Shown: piece after piece, positions 6,367-57,508 of the stretch | Layout of the letters: each line of letters starts with the position of its first letter | Numbering within the stretch: position 1 is the first letter of the stretch | From: Candidatus Nealsonbacteria bacterium | GTDB taxonomy: Bacteria > Patescibacteriota > Minisyncoccia > Minisyncoccales > JBGOYX01 | Direction: 5' to 3' | DNA length: 64,000 nucleotides | Assembly: GCA_963820485.1 (NCBI GenBank) | Contig: CAWFZW010000004.1 | Span: forward strand, 61,743-125,742 | Notes under the pieces: model-generated | What the model was told of the DNA's origin: nothing | The model's input: only the letters and a program-made list of their open reading frames with translations | Databases searched by the model: none | Position numbers and translations under genes: made by a program

Positions 6367-7297
6367 TCAAAAACCAGTAGCAATGACACTTACCTTTATT
6401 TCTCCTTCTTTCAAATTTTTATCTTTTAAGGCTCCAAAAATTACCTTAGCTTCTGGGTTAATTTCTTGGGTAATTAATTTAGCCACTTCGTCTATTTCAG
6501 AAAGGCTTAAGGTCGTCACCTCCTGAAATATTAAATAAAACTCCTTTTGCTCCTTTGCAAGATATATTAAGCAAGGGAGAATTAATTGCCCGCTTTGCTG
6601 CCTCAGTGGCTCTGTTTTCTCCACAAGCTGAACCTATTCCAAACAAAGCTGTGCCAGAATTTTTCATTATTGAATAAACATCAGCAAAATCAACATTTAT
6701 TATGCCAGGTAAAAAAATTAAATCAGTAATTCCTTGAACTGCTTGTCTTAAAATATCATCGCAAACCCAAAAAGCGGCAGAAACAGAAGTTTTAGGATCC
6801 AGATTTTCCAATAATTTATCATTTTCAATTGTAATCAAACTATCAACTTTTCCTTTTAGTAGTCTTTCAGTATTCTCAGCAATTTTCCTACGGAAAATTC
6901 CCTCAAAGGAAAAAGGTAGAGTAACTATTGCCACGGTCAAAGCTCCTGAATTTTTGGAAATCTCGGAAATAATTGGCGAAGCTCCGGAACCCGTACCTCC
7001 GCCCAAACCACAAGTAATAAAAACCATATCAGAATTTTTTAAAACTTCTTGAATTTCGTTTTTGCTTTCCTGGGCTGCCTTTTTTCCAATTTCAGGATTC
7101 ATACCGGTTCCTAAACCCTGAGTAATATTTTTCCCAATTCTTAATTTGAAATCAGCTTTAGTTTTCTTTAAATCCTGGTCATCGGTATTAATAGCAATCA
7201 ACTCAATTCCTTTAATTTTAGCTTTCCTCATTCTTAAAATGGCATTACATCCTGAACCTCCAACCCCTACTACTTTAATTTTGGTAATAGATTTCAT
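6367..7297 (-). CDS. ftsZ: cell division protein FtsZ (one frameshift near 6500-6620)
   Basis: Fragments 6497..7297 and 6367..6624. Motifs GVGGSGCNA and GLGGGTGSGASPI (tubulin signature). Confidence 0.9.
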
Positions 7298-7394
7298 AAA
7301 TTTATTGCCGAATCAAGGTTCTCGCCGTAGGCGAGGTTCTTATTTTTGTTATTGTTTTCATGGTATAAAAATTTAACCGCTAACGTAGAAATTT

Positions 7395-8616
7395 TCATGG
7401 TATAAAAATTTTAAAAATTCTTTTAATTTTTGTCCCCATCCCTTCTCCAAATTCAAAAGTTTTTCCTTCTGCCAAATCTGTTCCTAAAAGAACCAATCCG
7501 CCGCAAACTGCCAAAGCGGGGTCTTCTAAATTGGAAATTCCCTGGGGTTTTCCTATTTTAACCGGCAACTTTAACTCTTTTTTAGCTAATTCTGCTATTT
7601 TTGGCAATTTTGCCCCTCCGCCGGTTAAAACCACGCCAGCAGGCAATAGTTTTTCCTTGCCAATTTTCTTTAATTCTTTATAAATTTGACTGAAAATTTC
7701 AGAAACCCTTGGTTCAATAATGTTTGTTAATTGTTTCTGAGAAAAAATCAATGGAGCATCTTCGCCTATTTCAATTTTTTCTTTTTTTCTACTAACAGAT
7801 TTTTTATTATTCCCCTTTAAAGAACAAGTTCCGTATTCTATTTTTATTCTCTCTGCAATGTCAATGTCGGTTTTCAAACCAATAGCAATATCATTTGTAA
7901 TATTAGCGGAACCGATTGGTAAAATTATTAGATGAATTAAATCTCCTTCTTCAAAAACAGCTAAACCCGTAGTGCCTGCTCCAACATCAACTAAAGCCAC
8001 TCCCAATTCTTTTTGTCGGGAAGTTAAAACTGCTCGAGCTGAAGCTATTGGCGAAGGAATTCTGTCTAAAATTTGAAGGTCAGAATTTAAAACGGCTTCA
8101 GTCAAATTTTTTAAATAGGGTGAAAAACCGCCCAAAGCTAAAACGTCAGCTTCTAATCTCACTCCTCGAAGTCCTAAAACTTCTTTTATTCCACCTTGGC
8201 CGTCAACGATGAATTCTTTGGGAGAAACATCAAAAATTTCTTTGTTCGAAGGAAGAGAAAACGTCTGGGCGGCTTGAAAAACTCTTTCTATGTCTTCTTC
8301 AGAAATTTTTTGGTCAGCTCGGGAAACAGCTACCGTACCATGAGAAGAAGCAGAAAAAATGTGGCCGCCATTGATATTAAGAAAAACTGAATCAATTTTT
8401 AAACCATTATCATGCTGAATTTTTTCCAAAATATCGGTTAAGACAGTCAGAAACTTCTTCCATACCGATAACCACTCCTTTTCTGACTCCAGCCGCAGGT
8501 TCCTGAATTAAAGACATAACTTCTAATTCTGATTCTTTTGGTTTTTTTGAAGCAACTAAAATCTTTATCGCGCTTGTTCCAATATCTAAGCCAGTTATAA
8601 TAGATGGCTTTGCCAT
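7395..8616 (-). CDS. ftsA: cell division protein FtsA (frameshift near 8410-8430)
   Basis: Fragments 8410..8616 (ITGLDIGTSAIKILV) and 7395..8429 (actin-like ATPase, VDVGAGTTGLAVF). Lies directly upstream of ftsZ. Confidence 0.88.
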
Positions 8617-12768: not shown

Positions 12769-13205
12769 AAGCCGTGGCCACGAGCAAGAAGCTTATTCTC
12801 GCTTCACTCAAACATAAAAAAGCCGATGGCTATGAATCGAACATCTTAACCTCGGCTATACGTCAGGAACCTGACGGCCTCTTCTATCGGGTTCTACCAA
12901 TACTATATCAGAAGCTCGTTCAAAACAGGTACAGAATCTCCTTGTAAATTACCTCCGCTTCTGTACTATAACCAACTGTTACCCAATCTGACCAAGATTT
13001 CCGATTTCGCCAGTCACATGAATAGTTACAGGATCACGAATTGACTTACATTTTCACATTCAACTGCCATGCCTTAGTGCCTCCTTTCTTTTTAATATAC
13101 TCCGAGAAGACTTTCCAAAGTAATCCCTTTGATCACTCGGGGCGATGCCATTAAAGATTTAGCTTCCTGGCTATCTGGATCTCTGACATTGCGCCTTTTT
13201 TTCTT

Positions 13206-13336
13206 CTATATTTTCTTTATCTTCTTGATCGCTGCTCCCAAAGGAATCAAGATAATCCAAGTAAGAATCATAAGATAATGAACCAAAAAATATAAAAAGC
13301 CAATTCTATCCAATTATTAAAAATCCCTGACATCAT
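13206..13336 (-). CDS. candidate small hydrophobic peptide (about 43 aa if one frameshift is bridged)
   Basis: Strong SD AAGGAGGT 6 nt before ATGATG at 13336. Translates MMSGIFNNWIELAFYIFWFIIL(stop/frameshift)ILTWIILIPLGAAIKKIKKI. Below the track cut-off. Confidence 0.3.
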
Positions 13337-13380
13337 TTAATACCTCCTTTTGAAATTGTAAGAGCAAAAATTTTTGCCCT

Positions 13381-13527
13381 CCAGTCTACCTGTGAGCGTT
13401 AGAGATATAAAACATAAGTTTTAATCCGTAACCTAAGGCCCTAAGTTTAAGGAGGGATTACTCAGGTTTTGTCCCCTTCACTTTTGAAAAGCAAAGGTGA
13501 AGGGCGAGCCACTCACAGGTAGGCTGG
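13381..13527 (-). ncRNA. unassigned structured leader element (multi-stem junction closed by a 16 bp helix)
   Basis: CCAGTCTACCTGTGAG (13381-13396) pairs with CTCACAGGTAGGCTGG (13512-13527). Internal hairpins CCCTTCAC/GTGAAGGG and TAATCC/GGATTA. Lies between a minus-strand TTGACA-17-TATAAT promoter and the SD of the small ORF. Strand is uncertain: one G-U pair favours plus, the context favours minus. Confidence 0.4.
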
Positions 13528-18958: not shown

Positions 18959-19042
18959 GCCCGGGTGGCGGAATTGGTTTACGCGTACGACTCAAAATCG
19001 TATGAGAGCAATCTCGTGTGGGTTCGAGTCCCACCCCGGGCA
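18959..19042 (+). tRNA. tRNA-Leu (anticodon CAA), CCA not encoded
   Basis: Acceptor GCCCGGG/CCCGGGC. Anticodon arm TACGA-CTCAAAA-TCGTA. Long variable arm. T-arm GTGGG-TTCGAGT-CCCAC. Discriminator A. Confidence 0.9.
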
Positions 19043-22116: not shown

Positions 22117-23161
22117 TTATATTCTTAGATTAGCATTAGCTTTTATTTTTTTCCAGTTTTTTGTAGCTTCTTTCCGATGAAAATATGCTGTTATCGCAAT
22201 CATGGCCGCATTGTCGGTGCAAAATTTAGAATCTGGAATTAGAATTTGGAATTTGGCATTTCTTTTTTAACCTTTTCTCCAAATTGCTTTCTTAATTCAT
22301 CGTTGGCAGTCACGCCGCCCCCTAAAATTATTGATTTTACTCTATAATCTTTGGCAGCTTTTAGGGTTTTATGGATTAAAACATCAATAATCGACTGCTG
22401 AACTTCTTTTGAAATTTCTCCGATGTATTCTTTAGCTTTTCTAACTTTTGGCGGCCTATTTTTAAAATCATATAAGACGGCTGTCTTCAAACCGGAAAAA
22501 CTGAAATCGTAATTTTTCTGATATATCATCGGTCGGGGTAATTTTATTTGAAATTTGGATTTTTGTCCGTTAACTGGTGGATTAAATTTTTCCGCCTGCC
22601 TATCAATAATTGGTCCTCCGGGATACCCCAATCCTAAAATTCTGGCAACTTTGTCAAAACATTCGCCAGCCGCATCATCGCGAGTTTCGCCTAATTAATT
22701 TATACCTGCCGACATCTCGCATTAAAATTAATTGAGTGTGCCCACCACTCACAACAAGACATATGGCGGGAAAACAATTTTTAATTTCTTCGTCAATAAA
22801 ATTGGCGAGTAATGTGTGCTTCAATGTGATTTACCGGAATTATTGGTTTTTTAAGCTTTTCAGCCAATTCAATTGCGAAATTTATCCCCTGCCACAAGCA
22901 AGGCTCTAATCCCGGACCTGCAGTTACTCCAATTAAATCAATTTTTGAGATATCAATTCCCTTGGTGGCTTTTTTGAAAACAACTGGTAAATTTCTCTGA
23001 TGTTCTCTTTTGGCCAAAAAAGGATAAACTCCACCGTATTTTGCGTGGAGTTTAACCTGTGAAGAAATAATATTAGAAATAAGATTAAATTTTTTATTTT
23101 TCACTTCTAAGACGCTGATACAAGTATCGTCGCAAGAAGTATCAATACTAAGAATTATCAT
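22117..23161 (-). CDS. tsaD: tRNA N6-adenosine threonylcarbamoyltransferase TsaD (several frameshifts)
   Basis: Fragments 22793..23161 (ILSIDTSCDDTCISV, VNHIEAH) and 22239..22631, plus a hand-translated C-terminus IPDSKFCTDNAAMIA ending at 22117. Confidence 0.85.
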
Positions 23162-23745: not shown

Positions 23746-23787
23746 ATTTTTATTTTATCATTTTTAAAGTTTGAATTAAATAAAAAA

Positions 23788-23825: not shown

Positions 23826-24341
23826 TTAGTGGCCGCATCCGCAAGAAGGAGACCACTGAGGAGAATGAAAATCACAGGACGGAGGATCCGGCCAGCCATC
23901 TTGCCTATGAGTACTGTACCACATCCACCAGCAGTTCCGGCATTCCGCCCAACTACCTAACTGGGAATAATTTTCCGCTAAGAATTTCTGAATGGTATCA
24001 TTTATCCCTAGTTGATAACCCTCATTTTTTCCATCATTCTCACCGACGGCATAACCTCGATTATATCCCTGGTCTTCACCTTCGGCCTTACCGCGTTGAT
24101 AACCTTCGCTGTCACCAACTTTCTTTCCTGCGGCAAACCCCAATACCTTTCCTTCTTCTAATCCGGCTCTATGGCCCGTCTTCTCGCCGTTTTCATTGCC
24201 CTGCTCATAGCCTTCGGAGTGTCCTCGCGCATATCCTTGAGCATCTCCCTGCTTTTCACCAAAATACAAACCAACAACAAAAGAAGCAACCACGGCGACG
24301 ATTATACAACACGTTGTTATAGCAACTTTCCATGGTTCCAT
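23826..24341 (-). CDS. membrane-anchored protein with (E/D)GY-x-x-G repeats and a Trp/Cys-rich tail; G+C-rich relative to its neighbours
   Basis: 171 aa. SD GGGAGGTGA 6 nt before the ATG. TM anchor, 11-residue-like repeats (GYARGHSEGYEQGNENGEKTGHRAGLEEG...), and C-terminus CRNCWWMWY...SCGCGH. Confidence 0.7.
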   Translation of the reverse strand: MEPWKVAITTCCIIVAVVASFVVGLYFGEKQGDAQGYARGHSEGYEQGNENGEKTGHRAGLEEGKVLGFAAGKKVGDSEGYQRGKAEGEDQGYNRGYAVGENDGKNEGYQLGINDTIQKFLAENYSQLGSWAECRNCWWMWYSTHRQDGWPDPPSCDFHSPQWSPSCGCGH

Positions 24342-24429
24342 TTTATGTCACCTCCCTTTCTTTTTTTTGTTTTTTTTAAGTTGTTCAAGAACTAAATAAA
24401 TTATTAATCACCTCCTTTGAAAACTAATA

Positions 24430-24457
24430 TATCATACCAAATGAAAGTTTTTTGTCA
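24430..24457 (-). promoter_or_regulatory. promoter (TTGACA-16-TATGAT with a TG extension) for the 23826..24341 gene
   Basis: Plus-strand atcata at 24430-24435 and tgtcaa at 24452-24457. Confidence 0.55.
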
Positions 24458-24473
24458 AGAGCGGGCCTACAAA

Positions 24474-25135
24474 TAAAAAACGGTCCGCACAAGAGGTGGA
24501 ACCGTTCGAGGAGGTGAGGCCTTGGGTAGTGGCGCAAGCGCCACTACCCAAACCAATAAATCGGCTTAATCGGGCTGTGCCTTTTAACCCTACTTATCTT
24601 CTTCGGGCTTTTTCATAGGCTTCCCTGCTGTGGAGCTTTATAGTCCCACCTTGAGCCGGTTTACCAAGTCGGCAGTTACGAGGCTACGACGTGAACCACT
24701 TCTGCCGAAGCCAGAAAGATACAATCATATATCACATCACCTCCCTTAGAAAAGAACCATGTGGGGTAGCCCATGACTACACAACTACCCTGCCACCCAA
24801 CGAGCGGAGGACTACCCCTGAAATGTAATGTAATGTGCTGTAATGACGGGGAGCCTCAATTTTGCTCTCGCCTCTTCCTCACTCCTTCTCTAATGAGCTC
24901 AGAGCGCTCCAGCCGTGTGATGGTGGCACAATGGGATTGTGCAGCAACTAGGCATAGTGCCTAGAGCTAGGCATGGTGCCTAGACAGAGTCGGTGTGCGC
25001 TACACGAGGTAGTTGCCGGACTTCTAATGCCAACCATACTGCTCTACTTATCCTCCTCCTTTTTTGAAAAAAGGAAACCAACCGACCTTGGTTTGGCTAA
25101 TGGTTTTTACCCATTATTCCTTCTTTCTTTTTAAT
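24474..25135 (-). ncRNA. candidate large (~660 nt) structured non-coding RNA, family unassigned
   Basis: Markedly more G+C-rich than the flanks, with stops in all six frames. Many perfect hairpins, including UUCG-looped CTGGC-TTCG-GCAG, a 14 bp stem TTGGGTAGTGGCGC/GCGCCACTACCCAA, and twin hairpins CTAGGCA-NNN-TGCCTAG. Own promoter at 25142-25169 and a terminator hairpin + T-run at 24474-24504. Confidence 0.5.
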
Positions 25136-25141
25136 TAATAA

Positions 25142-25169
25142 ATCCTATCAAAAATAAAAACCCTGTCAA
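25142..25169 (-). promoter_or_regulatory. promoter (TTGACA-16-TAGGAT) upstream of the candidate large RNA
   Basis: Plus-strand atccta at 25142-25147 and tgtcaa at 25164-25169. Confidence 0.45.
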
Positions 25170-25198
25170 TAATGGAAATTTCACCACAGGATTAATTT

Positions 25199-26452
25199 TT
25201 ACTTCTTTTTTATAATTCCTTCAAATTTTGTCAAAAAATCAATATTATCTTCAATATTTTCAAAAACAACCGTATTGGGACCAATATTACAATTATTTCC
25301 AATTAAAACCCCGGGCATCAAAGAGCAATTTATACCGGTTCTGGAATTTTCTCCCATAACCACCCCTAAAGAATCCAGACCTGTACCGATTTTTTCTCCC
25401 TTAACAATTGATTTTATCTCTCCCCTGTCAATTCTAACATTGGCAGTTATTGTTCCCGCTCCTATTCTGCAACCTTTACCGAAAATTGAATCGCCAAAAT
25501 AACCGGAATGAGTGTGAACATCTTCTTGAAAAATACATCTTGTTACTTCGGCTAAAGCACCGATTAAACTATTTTGTTCCAAATTGGTGTAATCTCTGAC
25601 CAAAGAATTATTCCCGATAACACAGTTATCGCCAATATAACAAGGTCCTTTAATTACTGCTCCTTCATAAATTTTTGCGTTTTCGCCGATAAAAACCTTA
25701 CCTTCAATGATGACGTTTTTTGAAATTCTGGCGGTTTTGGCAATTTTACCTTCTAAGTATTTGTCCATTAAATATTTTGTTACTTCAAATAAATGCCAAG
25801 GATATTTAAAGGCCAAAGTTTTTTCCTTGATAATTACAACTCTCACATCTTTTTCTCTCATATAAAGAGATAGGACGTCCTCAAAGGCATACATATGCTC
25901 TGGAACTCTTTGGTAATAATCTAAAAATTCTTTCGGCAAAAAGTAAATTCCAACAACTTTTATATTTGACGCCTCTTTCCCCTTTTCCGGTTTTTCAATC
26001 AGATTTTTTGCCTTATCTCCTTCTAAATCTAAAATTCCAAAAAGCGAAGGATTTTCAGTTTCAGCCCCCAGTAAAACCATTTTCGCTCCCGAAGATTTTT
26101 GTTTCTCTAAAATAGATTTAATATAATCCTTAACGTCAAATCTTTCGGCATTCAAAACAAAAAATTGGTCCTGTAAAACATTTCTTGCCTGAAAAAGAGC
26201 GTTTCCCATCCCTTTTGGTTCTTCCTGAATCACATATTTAATATCAATCCCTAAATTATAATGCTTCAATTCTTCTTCAACATCTTTTTTGGGCCCCTGA
26301 ACAACAATAATATCTTTAATCCCGGCCCTTTTTAAGCTTTCAATTGTATACCAAATCAAAGGCCTCCCCATTATTTTCAGAAGGGATTTATGCTTTATGT
26401 TTAATGGCCAGAAGCGAGATGACTCGCCTGCTGCTAAAATTAATGTTTGCAT
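25199..26452 (-). CDS. sugar-1-phosphate nucleotidyltransferase with a C-terminal left-handed beta-helix acyltransferase domain (GlmU-like)
   Basis: Intact 417 aa. N-terminal [13 protein letters not shown]...K nucleotidyltransferase signature. C-terminal hexapeptide repeats ([13 protein letters not shown]...). Confidence 0.8.
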
Positions 26453-43585: not shown

Positions 43586-45882
43586 TTATTTCAATAATCC
43601 CTTTATTTTAGCTATTAAATCTGTTATTAAATCGGTAATCATTTGGACAACAGAAGCCAATTGACTTTCTTTGTTTTGTGGCTCAAAACTACTTCCGCCG
43701 CAATTTGCATCACAGGTCGCTTTAGAATTTGTTATAAAACCATAACCGCCCCAGGCAGCAGCGCAACAATAAGGCGCAGATGACGTTGCGGTATTATATA
43801 AACCACATCTGCAGGGCAGTACGGCATTAGAATATTGGCATGAAGAGTAAGTACAGGTTGGTGTTGGGGTTGAGGTAGGCGTGGGGGTTGGAGTGGCTGT
43901 ACCACAATTTGCATCACAGGTTGTTTTAGAATTTGATGTAATACCACTACCGCCATTACCAGCAGCGCAGCAATAAGGATAAGATGCTGTTGCGGTATTG
44001 GATGAACCGCATTTACAGGGCAGTACGGCATTAGAATATTGGCATGAAGAGTAAGTACAGGTTGGTGTTGGGGTTGGAGTTGGAGTTGGGGTTGGAGTAG
44101 GGGTTGGAGTAGGAGTTGGTGTTGGGGTTGGGGTTGGGGTTGGAGTGGGTGTACCGCAATAAGAATCGCAGGTCGCTTTAGAGTTTGTTACAAAACCATA
44201 ACCGCTCAAATAAGAAGCGCAGCAATAAGGATAAGATGCTGTTGCGGTATTGGATGAACCGCATTTACAGGGCAGTACGGCATTAGAATATTGACATGAA
44301 GAGTAAGTACAGGTTGGGGTTGGGGTTGGGGTTGGGGTAGGGGTAGGGGTTGGTGTTGGAGTGGGTGTTGGAGTGGGTGTTGGGGTTGGGGTTGGCGTTG
44401 GGGTTGGCGTTGGGGTGGGGGTTGGGGTTGGGATTGGAGTTGGAGTGGGGGTTGGAGTTGGGGTGGGGGTGGGGGTAGTAAGATTGAACATAGTCCCAAC
44501 TGAAGTGTCAGAATTTAAAGTTAAGGTACAAATATTATTAGTGCTACCAGAGCAAGCTCCCGACCAACCTGCAAAGATGGAACCAGAAAAAATAGAGGCG
44601 GTTAGAGTAACTTGTGTTCCTTGAGTATAGTTTTCTGAACAATCTGTTCCGCAGTTAATACCTGAAAGAGAACTAGTAATATTGCCGGAACCTGTTCCTA
44701 ATTTTGAAATATTTAAAGTATATGTGGTACCGCCTACAAGATTAAACGCAGCTCCAACTGAAGTATTGGAATTTAAAGTCAGAGTGCAGGTGCTGGTACC
44801 GGAGCAAGCTCCTGACCAGCCAGTAAAGGTGGAACCTGCGGCCGGAGAAGCGGTAAGAGTAATTTGAGTTCCTTGGTTGTAATCTTCAGTACAATCTGTG
44901 CCGCAGTTAATACCAGAGGGGGAAGAAGTAACTGTTCCTGAACCTGTGCCTGATTTGGAGAGAGTTAAGGTATAGCTTGTGGGTAGTAGTAAGATTAAAG
45001 GCAGCTCCGACTGAAATATTAGAATTCAAAGTAATAGTACAGGTAGTTTTAGTACCCGAGCAAGCTCCTGACCAGCCTGCAAAAGTGGAACCTGTGGTTG
45101 GAGTGGCGGTTAAGAGTAATTTTAGTACCAGAAACAAATTTAATACTGCAAGTGCTTCCGCAGTTAATACCAGAAGGAGAACTATTAATAGTTCCAGAAC
45201 CTGTGCCTGATTTGGAAATCGTAACGGTTTTTGAGTTGTTGGGTTGGTGTTGAAGAGGGTTTAGGTGTCGCTGTCGGAGTTGGAGATGAAGGTGTGATGT
45301 TGGAGTTGGAGTAATTACGGGGGAAAGGTTGGTGTGGGTTCGGGGGTAAGTGATGGAGTGATTGTTGGCATTGTAAAACCTTTGCTTCCGGGTTGATTAA
45401 GATTAGAAACACAATACTCTTGTTTGGTTCTTTCTAATTTATTAGCGCAAATTTTCCAGGAACAACCTTTTGTCTGCTTGACAAATATTAAAACCTTCGC
45501 CATTGTCTGGTTCAAAATAATAATAGTAAGGATTGCGATCTATGGGGTCAATCGGAAGTTTGGCAATCAAGTCTGGCAGTAAAACTCTTAAATCCGTCCT
45601 GTCGCACCAATTATCCCCATCAGGCAGGGTTTGATCATCACTGCACCCCATACTGGTGTCAAAATAATGATTTTCTTCGGGATATTTATCGTATACTGAC
45701 CAATACGTTTCCAAAGCGTCGGCTATTTGTTTTACATCTGCTTCTCTTTTTGCGTCTCTCTTTTTTTCATTAATAGATTTGAGATTCATAAAAACTATGG
45801 TACCCAAAACAGCAACAGCTATTAACACCCAAACCACGCTTAACCCTTTTTGTTTCAACACAGTTGTTGTTGAAATTTTCAT
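43586..45882 (-). CDS. mosaic surface protein: pseudopilin-like N-terminus + Pro/Thr linkers + 3 InlB-type B-repeat domains + 3 eight-Cys modules (several frameshifts)
   Basis: Fragments 45442..45882 (hydrophobic N-terminus, then [27 protein letters not shown] as in GspG/pilins), 45315..45515, 45185..45412, 44907..45137 ([38 protein letters not shown]) and 43586..44491 (TP repeats; [18 protein letters not shown]...YCCA...CDxxCG three times). Confidence 0.7.
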
Positions 45883-56716: not shown

Positions 56717-57167
56717 ATGAAGGTATTAGCTGAGAATAAAAAGGCATATTTTAATTATGAAATCCTGGAGAAGTTTGAAGCAGGGATTTCTTTGATTGGA
56801 CAGGAAGTAAAATCAATTAAAACCAAAGGGGTAAATTTAGCCGGTTCTTATGTGGTTGTAAAAGATGAAGAGGTTTTTTGGATTGGGGCAAGAATTCCTC
56901 CTTATCAGCCAAAAAATGCGCCCCCTGATTATCAACCGGAGAGGTCGCGGAAACTTCTTTTGAGAAAATCAGAAATTAAATATTTAATCGGAAAATCCCA
57001 GCAAAAAGGCTTGACTTTGATACCTTTGAAAGGTGTATAATAAAAATGGTAAAATCAAATTTGAGTTTGGAATAGCAAAAGGAAAAAAGGAATTTAATAA
57101 AAAAGAGTTAATTAAAAAAAGGGAGACAGAAAGAGAAATTAAAAGAGAATTAAATTTACGGGGATGA
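56717..57167 (+). CDS. smpB: SsrA-binding protein SmpB (frameshift near 57035)
   Basis: ORF 56717..57040 (KAYFNYEILEKFEAGISLIGQEVKS, RSRKLLLRKSEI). The C-terminal tail KIKFEFGIAKGKKEFNKKE... is in another frame and stops at 57165-57167. Confidence 0.88.
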
Positions 57168-57507
57168 AAAAGAATCGATGAAAGATCTTTATAAAATATG
57201 CAGGCTGAGTTTACTAGAATCTCAAAAAACTTCTGGTAAAAAGAATAAATGCCAATTTATTCAAACAACCCGCTTTAGCTTACGTCTAAAGCCATCTAAT
57301 TTAGTGATTCTCGATAGCTAAAATTAGGTGTCATATTATCGAGATAGATGGTTCTTTTGTCTCGCGAACTTATCAAAGCAACAGAGACAATTAGTACTAG
57401 AGCTTTTTTCTGTTTCTAATCTAGTATTTCAAAGTTAAACAGAATAATCCTGTAGAATTATTTTAAAAAGACTTTCAGATGTGGGAGCATCACCCACCAT
57501 CTCCACC
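57160..57507 (+). ncRNA. ssrA: tmRNA (SsrA)
   Basis: 5' GGGGATG pairs with 3' CATCTCC, including the G3-U pair. T-arm GTGGG-AGCATCA-CCCAC. Discriminator A + CC. Candidate tag frame GCC AAT TTA TTC AAA CAA CCC GCT TTA GCT TAC GTC TAA (ANLFKQPALAYV) at about 57251-57289. Lies next to smpB. Confidence 0.85.
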
Positions 57508-57508
57508 G

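Follow-up and report, generated by a model that had tools for sequence, protein, structure and literature searches.

In a 64,000-nucleotide (nt) stretch of Candidatus Nealsonbacteria DNA (the whole stretch is hereafter termed the window), the minus strand of positions 24474-25135 very probably encodes a structured RNA that is real and represents a new family. Comparison with related loci established, or strongly indicated, that its helices F, G, D and B:E are conserved, that it carries perfect Shine-Dalgarno (SD) boxes, and that an anti-SD mimic, box E, closes its 3' domain. The same holds for a second purine/CU/SD triad at the 5' end and for mini-open reading frames (mini-ORFs) whose first 6-9 codons are conserved as amino acids. 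On balance, we lean towards the view that this RNA is a ribosome-engaging regulator built on SD/anti-SD helices, neither an inert scaffold nor an ordinary mRNA. Unless stated otherwise, all features described below lie on the minus strand.

The interval was singled out in an earlier note as a G+C-rich, ORF-free island encoding a highly structured non-coding RNA with its own promoter and terminator. Its G+C content is indeed 49.2% over the ~662 nt of the deduced transcript, compared to a window mean of 34.5% (standard deviation 5.5%, 200-nt windows), and in 300-nt windows it peaks at 0.51 inside the interval versus 0.26-0.37 in the flanks. As for the absence of ORFs, no minus-strand ORF of at least 40 amino acids (aa) lies within the interval, and its plus-strand ORFs are only 40-63 aa long and have no Pfam match, but a conserved 29-codon minus-strand frame at 24948-25037 means that the island is not strictly ORF-free. 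The promoter, TTGACA-16-TAGGAT (25142-25169), matches at 10 of 12 positions and carries a TG ahead of its -10 box. It lies ~7 nt upstream of the inferred transcript start (25135) and is directly followed by the conserved 5' start of the RNA, UUAUUAAUUA. A promoter of this type, complete with T-rich spacer and the initial transcribed sequence TTAATTA, precedes the RNA in the relatives. At the other end, terminator T (CGGUUCC...GGACCG followed by U6; 24474-24504) comprises 6 bp with a bulge and an 11-nt loop, which a simple terminator scan overlooked; it forms in the minimum free energy structure and occupies the position of the relatives’ terminator. The ends of the whole transcript (24474-25135) were deduced from these two elements, both of which were as the earlier note had described them.

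The predicted folding energy of this transcript was -237.4 kcal/mol, compared to -207 +/- 8 kcal/mol for 20 dinucleotide shuffles (z = -3.7), and the minus strand folded 20 kcal/mol better than the plus strand. This asymmetry, the many G-U pairs and the orientation of promoter and terminator point to the minus strand as the RNA strand. The stems listed previously (AAACCAA/TTGGTTT, CCTTTTTT/AAAAAAGG, GCAACTA/TAGTTGC, GCACAAT/ATTGTGC and GGGTAG/CTACCC) are all there, as are a perfect 14-bp hairpin (24522-24551) and the twin hairpins (24948-24983); the UUCG-capped stem is present too, though imperfect.

Relatives were collected using the flanking 417-aa GlmU-like NTP_transferase/hexapeptide protein, which marks the host as a Paceibacteria-type Patescibacterium, as bait, yielding 160 syntenic loci (given L numbers here) and a few more via exact-protein look-ups, while such look-ups with the window’s own flanking proteins returned no identical record. 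In 76 loci the nucleotidyltransferase gene is followed by tsaC, with an intervening gap of 9 nt to >3 kb. About 17 distinct RNA sequences, the window’s included (180-660 nt), were found in Paceibacteria-type contigs, all in this one slot: the window, L022, L019, L105, L016 (Candidatus Paceibacter normanii SCGC AAA255-P19) and L013; the L104/L083/L168/L224/L225 group; L134, L009 (= L106) and L138; the L002 (= L086)/L091/L092 group; and L054 and L049. A nhmmer search with the window RNA, as the earlier note had proposed, matched L022 alone (E = 1e-47, ~80% identity) and only over RNA positions 312-670. L022 is the closest relative (84% identity in the flanking nucleotidyltransferase) and the one close homologue of the window-type 3' domain, yet RNA positions 1-311 do not align with it despite TsaC proteins that are ~92% identical (estimated by eye from the translations). 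Hidden Markov models (HMMs) of the modules matched F+B and/or D-E-T in L105, L016, L019, L104, L083, L013 and L168; a scan for box B added L002, L086, L091, L092, L049, L054 and L138, a scan for the start motif added L134, and contig look-ups gave L224 and L225. The same anatomy recurred when we read the ORF-free, G+C-richer gaps of other loci, and promoter and module order are conserved among relatives whose flanking protein is only 54-84% identical.

RNA subtypes appear to track the similarity of the flanking nucleotidyltransferase (from an identity table, with no formal tree), a pattern that vertical descent with losses would fit better than recent acquisition, of which we found no sign. 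In relatives with a gap of ~65 nt, only a similar terminator appears to be left (weak matches, E 0.013-0.28), and in L088 the anti-SD box and terminator are the sole remnant. Since RNA-less relatives share this terminator, the RNA gene sits between it and the stop codon of the nucleotidyltransferase. L054 carries two tandem units (7206-7650), one of ~135 nt with only a D-like hairpin and terminator and one of ~180 nt with box B, hairpins, box E and terminator; both are bounded by a promoter and a terminator of their own, which shows that independent transcription of the units is possible. In short members (L002, L054), a separate promoter precedes the B-to-T unit, and we therefore regard the window RNA as a fusion of two units. 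This bears on the previous placement of the RNA in the size class of OLE, ROOL, GOLLD or an omega-RNA, which agrees in length alone, the RNA being a composite with relatives of ~180-660 nt.

The interval matched no RNA family in Rfam 15. We scanned all 4227 models of Rfam 15, which presumably include OLE, ROOL, GOLLD, HEARO and raiA. At the gathering score, the only matches in the whole window were tmRNA (57160-57508) and tRNA (18959-19042), whose recovery indicates that the scan works on this genome. Nothing relevant appeared at E<=10 on 24200-25400, 12 related loci gave no match at the gathering score, and eight relatives’ loci gave none at all at E<=1. With their covariance models unmatched, OLE, ROOL, GOLLD, HEARO and raiA were rejected, as were RNase P RNA, 6S RNA, SRP RNA, tmRNA and group I/II introns for the interval itself, in keeping with the claim that the family is unassigned. 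HEARO or another omega-RNA was also rejected by context, with no IscB/IsrB/TnpB-type nuclease gene among the neighbors (which encode an NTP_transferase/Hexapep protein, CofD, Sua5/YrdC and a small membrane protein) or in the relatives’ gene maps. OLE was rejected by context as well: the host is a Patescibacterium, and the adjacent membrane protein has no strong Pfam match and is mostly absent from RNA-bearing relatives. A template RNA of a diversity-generating retroelement was considered and dropped, there being no extended repeat that links the RNA region to the fast-evolving small-protein gene and no reverse transcriptase gene in the neighborhood. As for a phage or viral origin, blastn against phage records and two specific motif patterns in viral contigs gave no match; a 15-mer gave 54 matches, and because none of these matched the module HMMs we attribute them to chance and reject such an origin. 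A search of one literature library returned no described structured RNA of this kind in Patescibacteria or candidate-phyla-radiation bacteria.

We then compared base pairing between relatives. In an RNAalifold consensus of the window and L022 3' domains, every one of the 84 pairs is preserved, although 19 vary on one side and 8 on both, whereas controls with slid partners left 35-49% paired and 0-1 two-sided changes. Together with the folding z-score, this bears out the claim of a highly structured RNA. Within this set, no helix of domain G (helices 4-11) is lost, with 3 pairs there varying on both sides and 9 on one, hairpin D (helix 12) shows 4 two-sided compensations, and the B:E helix (helix 3) is kept. 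The basal stem of hairpin F could be followed through seven members, with the variable apices swapped for GAAA: two-sided changes affect 5 of its 14 pairs, and pairing holds in 90% of cells compared to 36-60% with slid partners. The unpaired cells correspond to a one-base bulge misplaced by MAFFT and to the shorter stems of the window and L022; MAFFT also mis-registers the 3' arm of this hairpin for the L104 subgroup. On whole RNAs, or on hairpin D without its apices, MAFFT lost the structural register, and D was described for each sequence and left uncounted. At the 5' end, the 11-pair stem between purine box 1 and the CU box is kept in the window, L105 and L016.

These comparisons bear on the idea that the interval is non-functional debris, i.e., the decayed remains of small-gene cassettes or of a protein gene within an intergenic island of variable content. 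The slot does vary greatly in length (9 nt to >3 kb), in L223 it holds four small-gene cassettes with the same kind of 5' SD box, L088 retains only the E+T remnant, and the tsaD gene adjacent in the window is frameshifted. Nevertheless, debris would hardly keep all 84 pairs with 27 of them varying, accumulate indels relative to L022 that are not multiples of three, or preserve promoter and module order at 54-84% flanking-protein identity. Neutral decay in an A+T-rich genome is expected to drift towards A+T, while this region is G+C-rich in a genome of 34.5% G+C. A decayed protein gene, which the earlier note had named among the findings that would overturn its proposal, was rejected specifically: there is no Pfam match, none of 142 island ORFs of at least 70 aa matches the RNAs, and the L022 indels again do not respect codons. 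We consider debris very improbable.

Read from its 5' end, the window RNA begins with module A (25050-25130), which consists of purine box 1 (25117-25130), two small hairpins (25075-25116), a CU box (UUCCUUUUUUC, 25066-25076) and an SD box (AAAAAAGGAGGAGGAU, 25050-25065). The CU box can pair with purine box 1 or, alternatively, with the SD box just downstream, thereby masking it. A 29-codon mini-ORF with its stop codon, MVGIRSPATTSCSAHRLCLGTMPSSRHYA* (24948-25037; asterisks denote stop codons), starts 14 nt past this SD box, and its 3' part holds the twin near-identical hairpins CUAGGCA(CCA/CUA)UGCCUAG (24948-24983). These are enclosed by GCAACUA/UAGUUGC (24944-25016), are specific to the window and were found in no relative. 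There follows a variable region that aligns with no relative (24819-24947), with a GCACAAU/AUUGUGC hairpin at 24926-24942 and a purine-rich stretch, and then hairpin F (GGGGUAGUCC ... GGGCUACCCC, 24763-24818), which has a variable apex and is trailed by a U-rich run (24748-24758).

The 3' domain opens with box B (AAGGGAGGUGAUG, 24735-24747), a perfect SD that, with its conserved tail GUGAUAUAUGAUUGUAUC, spans 24718-24747. We take box B to be a near-perfect complement of the usual 16S 3' tail, as judged on the general bacterial consensus, since this genome’s 16S lies outside the window. An exact GGAGGTGATG stands at the equivalent site in 12 relatives’ loci, and the relatives’ box B reads GAAAGGAGGUGAUG. 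Multi-helix domain G (24557-24727) is enclosed by the B:E helix and contains a CUG..CAG hairpin with a UUCG loop and the conserved motif GAUAAGUAGGG (24586-24598). It is followed by hairpin D (24522-24551), whose perfect 14-bp stem is UUGGGUAGUGGCGC/GCGCCACUACCCAA and at whose place the relatives have a G+C hairpin, mostly with a GUGGCGC core. Between D and terminator T lies box E, the anti-SD mimic CCUCACCUCCUC (CUCACCUCCUC, 24508-24519). We also noticed a 16-nt long-range pair of 88% complementarity between 24541-24556 and 25088-25103 (CCAUUAGCCAAACCAA with UUGGUUUGGGUAGUGG); it overlaps the 5' arm of hairpin D, to which it could be an alternative, and was seen in this sequence only.

Our preferred reading, i.e., a ribosome-engaging regulator, draws on the pairing of boxes B and E. 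Across all 14 members compared, RNAduplex energies for B:E fell between -8.5 and -17.6 kcal/mol, with the window at -17.6 kcal/mol; box E was the single best partner of box B in seven of the 14 and among the top few per cent in the others. Changes in box E are limited to those that preserve pairing (G-C/G-U, U-A/U-G), as seen between L002 and L092 (UAUCUCC versus UGCCUCC) and between the window and L022. B:E is therefore what one would look for in an intramolecular SD:anti-SD pair, namely a C/U-rich box that is complementary to an SD of its own molecule and conserved as a pair with it.

We next scanned each RNA for SD boxes with a start codon after them and found two recurring types of mini-ORF peptide. 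Type 1, MxxIR[S/A]PxT, is represented by MVGIRSPATT... in the window, MVYIRAPTDV... in L105 and MNPIRSPNTV... in L009. Codon differences among these were 11 synonymous to 14 non-synonymous in frame, compared to 0:25 and 0:23 in the other frames, with Ser encoded by AGU and UCA and Pro by CCG, CCU and CCC. Type 2, H-x-[P/A]-R-D-x, which the window RNA does not have, reads MHLPRDFP* in L002, L091 and L092, MHLPRDFI* in L104, L168 and L224, MRLPRDFI* in L138, MDSKHCPRDWVF* in L013 and MKHLARDHL* in L009, with MRHARDG..., MTHTRDP... and MRHHSRDTPC* in L016, L013 and L134, respectively. Pairwise codon differences in its HxPRDx block were 38 synonymous to 24 non-synonymous in frame versus 3:52 and 5:49 otherwise, and the codons in use were CCU/CCA/CCG/CCC for Pro, CGC/CGU/CGA/AGA for Arg, GAU/GAC for Asp and CUU/UUA/CUG for Leu. 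The MHLPRDF[I/P]* octapeptide alone is written with all four Pro codons, CGC/CGU, GAU/GAC and CUU/UUA across relatives. Conservation is confined to the first 6-9 residues: lengths range from 8 to 36 codons, the C-termini are free to vary, and L054 and L019 have frames of only 2-6 codons. The order of mini-ORFs relative to B and F also differs among subfamilies.

A synonymous excess in one frame only, combined with an SD at a workable distance in the relatives (5-8 nt from the start codon), is the pattern expected of translated short frames, and we judge it probable that the mini-ORFs are translated. Strong SD boxes and frame-specific synonymous changes indicate that the RNA is not purely non-coding, and here the earlier description of it as a non-coding RNA had to be given up. 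In type 2, RNA and peptide constraints overlap, because CAC CUU CC doubles as an anti-SD able to pair with the mini-ORF’s own SD. In the non-alignable part of the window RNA, we additionally observed a frame at 24812-24859 (UUG AGG CUC CCC ..., reading MRLPVITAHYITFQG*) that has MRLP in common with the MRLPRDFI* mini-ORF of L138; served by a weak SD at a distance of 11 nt, it could be a decayed type-2 mini-ORF or a product of chance.

The mini-ORFs set two further explanations against each other. The RNA could be a purely structural, non-coding ribonucleoprotein scaffold in the manner of OLE, perhaps working with the small membrane protein, with boxes and mini-ORFs being incidental. Its extensive conserved helices are what such a scaffold would have, as are recurring single-stranded motifs (GAUAAGUAGGG / UGAAUAGG and AAUGGGGUCGURAUGAUC) and a conserved sequence core in the D stem that suggests a protein-binding site, and in three members (window, L022, L019) the gene of a small membrane protein stands after the RNA. 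However, a prevalence of synonymous changes in a single frame, as seen for both types of mini-ORF, is difficult to account for unless the frames are translated, the SD-to-start spacing is correct in the relatives (5-8 nt), most members have no adjacent membrane-protein gene, and the OLE model is unmatched. We deem a pure scaffold unlikely.

Conversely, the transcript could be a small mRNA for one or more micropeptides of 8-36 aa, with the structured 3' part serving as a stabilizing untranslated region (UTR). The coding signature of the mini-ORFs agrees with this, as do the strong promoter and SD boxes, and stabilizer-type SD boxes and terminal hairpins are known mRNA stability devices. Yet conservation does not extend beyond the first 6-9 codons, and in L054 and L019 the frames have just 2-6 codons; the window has no HxPRDx type, subfamilies place their mini-ORFs differently relative to B and F, and the pairing constraint over many 3' helices exceeds what a stabilizer needs. 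A micropeptide mRNA is, in our estimation, quite unlikely.

Under the favored reading of a ribosome-engaging regulator, the SD boxes would recruit 30S subunits or ribosomes, and the mini-ORFs would be translated. Both events would compete with the intramolecular SD:anti-SD helices (in module A and at B:E), so that the RNA would be remodeled and its fold would depend on ribosome engagement. Bound ribosomes might also shield the RNA from 5'-to-3' exonucleolytic decay, in the fashion of the STAB-SD stabilizers discussed below, and box E, once freed, could act in trans by base-pairing with the SD regions of further mRNAs. One could go further and imagine a new class of abundant RNA by which Patescibacteria would sense or buffer their supply of free 30S subunits or ribosomes, a translation-status rheostat for organisms with minimal regulators. 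Ribosome loading on SD boxes and arrest-type mini-ORFs would then open the SD:anti-SD helices, and the released mimic of the 16S tail would repress SD-led mRNAs in trans, or a structured effector domain would be exposed. This extension is speculative, and we hold it to be rather unlikely.

Several points weigh against the regulatory reading or soften its support. The transcript ends and the translation were both deduced from the DNA. The 84-pair consensus was derived from the same two sequences in which the pairs were counted, which somewhat inflates its support, and box B barely varies, so that support for B:E is one-sided (G-C to G-U) and not fully compensatory. The window’s own mini-ORF has only two type-1 homologues and lies 14 nt from its SD, a long spacing. 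The frames after box B (M*, MIV*, MI*, MNVP*, MIVSFW...; 1-14 codons) are not conserved in register, conservation there lying in the nucleotide sequence, and box B may therefore not drive meaningful translation. HMMs built from distant members only score the window weakly (E = 0.15 for F+B and 0.0057 for the tail), and what links it to them is consequently synteny, structure and the order of the modules. Because every locus was collected via the flanking gene, sampling may account for the restriction to one locus. Finally, tsaD (22239-23161) lies in at least three frames compared to the intact 345-aa L022 orthologue, with residues 1-121, 129-158, 158-304 and 306-345 in frames -2, -3, -1 and -3; the tsaC, glyA and nucleotidyltransferase genes nearby are intact. 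The broken tsaD is either a pseudogene or the result of local indel errors in the assembly, and since it is frameshifted in this assembly, such errors are possible in the RNA locus too.

Outside the RNA, a small membrane-protein gene (23826-24341, 171 aa) has its own promoter, TTGACA-16-TATGAT (24431-24458; 11 of 12 positions, with TG), directly after T. A single hydrophobic segment at the N-terminus, G-Y-x-x-G repeats (a Yae1_N match below cut-off) and a Cys/Trp-rich tail characterize the protein, which is only 23% identical to its L022 orthologue. A word-indexed search with it returned no match, unlike a full HMMER scan, which gave two full-length homologues of 46-49% identity and hundreds of repeat-only matches. 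The closest full-length homologue (49%) is a 170-aa protein of L223 (Logan SRR14702244), where four small genes encoding 139, 164, 80 and 170 aa stand in a row upstream of tsaC (positions 1-2400), each with its own TTGACA promoter and terminator; the 80-aa product is CxxC zinc-ribbon-like. No RNA module was found within the 2.9 kb of the L223 contig examined.

The earlier note had suggested that the RNA and the membrane-protein gene form one acquired unit. The gene does follow the RNA in the window, L022 and L019, but it has its own promoter, ~14 relatives have the RNA and no such gene, and L223 has the gene and, within the 2.9 kb examined, no RNA, all of which speaks against the proposal. The slot is an island of variable content, occupied by the RNA, by small membrane-protein genes or by both; the two do not form one unit.

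The leaders of the small membrane-protein genes resemble part of the RNA. Their 5' UTRs begin with a perfect SD box AAAGGAGGUGAUU in the window (24389-24419, where the B-like box reads CAAAGGAGGUGAUU / AAAGGAGGUGAUU), in L022 (1620-1660) and in L223 (95-135 and 735-775). After this box comes a 4-codon frame (MKYL*, MGYL*) or none, and then a conserved UAGUUC, well upstream of the real SD. At least two leaders of L223 combine the B-like SD box with a 4-codon frame. From these sequences, the small-gene leader looks like a shared module related to box B of the RNA.

The same neighborhood bears on whether the RNA is a cis-acting leader or attenuator, in which mini-ORF translation controls read-through of T into the membrane-protein gene or tsaC. 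The combination of a leader peptide, hairpins and a terminator recalls classical attenuators, and internal hairpins with U-runs occur after module A and after F. Arguing in the other direction, a near-perfect promoter that serves the downstream gene immediately follows T, and RNA-less relatives retain the same terminator and tsaC promoter. tsaC appears to be leaderless and SD-less in all relatives read, with an extended -10 box of its own (TGATAAAAT or TGATATACT) ~7 nt before the ATG (window 23752-23760, with equivalents in L013, L016, L168 and L224), so read-through would give it an SD-less 5' UTR. A classical leader-peptide attenuator was rejected on the ground that the downstream cistron has its own promoter (24431-24458), and we regard cis-acting control of this kind as improbable.

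The -10 region of tsaC holds an inverted-repeat element (CCCCGTTAGAAAT ... ATTTCTAACGGGG) in L104 (1573-1665), L088 (6120-6200) and L138 (2880-3010), with an apparent TGATA duplication, resembling a miniature transposable element; a similar inserted element with different ends is probably present in L105 (3560-3645). Elsewhere in the window, the other strongly G+C-rich spot (43586-44491, up to 0.60) encodes a 301-aa protein rather than an RNA, in which long Thr-Pro repeats alternate with a Cys-rich module that is present three times. At 12950-13520, two strong SD boxes precede frames of just 14 and 22 codons, and no long ORF is present; this could be another small-ORF/RNA locus or a decayed gene.

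What is new here is the RNA family, its combination of parts and the almost unexplored phylum in which it occurs. A strongly promoted, structurally conserved RNA of 300-660 nt in which perfect SD boxes are coupled to anti-SD mimics and to mini-ORFs with conserved peptides would constitute a novel kind of regulatory device, in bacteria with tiny genomes and few known regulators, and would offer a concrete, testable case of ribosome-coupled RNA remodeling beyond model bacteria. More generally, the G+C-rich islands of A+T-rich genomes that pass for “ORF-free” may harbor translated frames of only 8-30 codons, and the MHLPRDF[I/P] octapeptide illustrates with unusual clarity how selection acts on a frame that gene callers miss because it is so short.

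How does this RNA compare with known systems? Like OLE, ROOL and GOLLD, the window RNA is ~600 nt long, has a G+C content above that of the genome and carries many conserved helices; the adjacent small membrane-protein gene in three members recalls the ole-oapA pair. It differs in that their models are unmatched and in that this family spans 180-660 nt and carries SD boxes and probably translated mini-ORFs. Moreover, OLE is tied to oapA-type genes and to extremophilic or anaerobic Firmicutes, whereas the membrane-protein gene is absent from most members here. The mini-ORFs resemble leader and arrest peptides (ErmCL/ErmBL, the Cat/Cml leaders, SecM, ApdA/ApdP) in being short frames in which few residues matter, and their I-R-S/A-P superficially recalls the R-A-P-P/R-A-G-P cores. 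RAPP-like cores, however, are defined by R-[A/G/S/D]-P-P (or RAGP/RAPG) near the C-terminus together with the adjacent N-terminal region (PMC12992588). The motifs found here, I-R-S-P-A (window), I-R-A-P-T (L105) and I-R-S-P-N (L009), occupy codons 4-8 and do not fit this definition, the window’s R-S-P-A lies at codons 5-8, and the transcript contains no regulated downstream cistron; a RAPP-like arrest peptide was therefore rejected.

Dual-function small RNAs such as RNAIII/hld, SgrS/SgrT and SR1/SR1P encode peptides of 26-43 aa that are conserved over their full length. Our RNA shares with them a structured, putatively regulatory transcript that also carries a short frame, but here only the first 6-9 residues are conserved, frames go down to 8 codons, the organisms are unrelated and there is no Rfam match.

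The icaR mRNA encodes a 186-aa repressor. As in its 3' UTR, a CU/C-rich motif near the 3' end of our RNA, box E just before terminator T, pairs with an upstream SD of the same molecule. In S. aureus icaR, an anti-SD motif in the 3' UTR pairs with the mRNA’s own SD (PMC3868564). That is a normal mRNA, while the masked SD here precedes frames of only 1-14 codons, and there is no sequence relationship between the two. Box E also resembles the C-rich seeds of the small RNAs RsaE and RNAIII, and by analogy it could equally target SDs in trans.

The core sequence of STAB-SD elements, ribosome-mediated 5' stabilizers of Gram-positive mRNAs known from B. thuringiensis cry3A and from B. subtilis hbs, aprE and the ermC leader, is GAAAGGAGG. 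The likeness lies in a very strong SD (GAAAGGAGG) that serves no real gene, as seen for box B with 16S complementarity judged on the general bacterial consensus, and in the fact that the same box heads the 5' UTRs of the neighboring small-protein genes. At STAB-SD, 30S binding to the strong SD blocks 5'-to-3' decay by RNase J1 (PMC4113751; also PMC5737220). The boxes described here differ in lying within a stand-alone structured RNA, 2-5 of them at a time, and in being paired to dedicated anti-SD boxes. Taken together, the RNA is most like a mix of these last three systems, i.e., a STAB-SD stabilizer, an icaR-type intramolecular anti-SD switch and a dual-function small RNA, a likeness that we draw by analogy.

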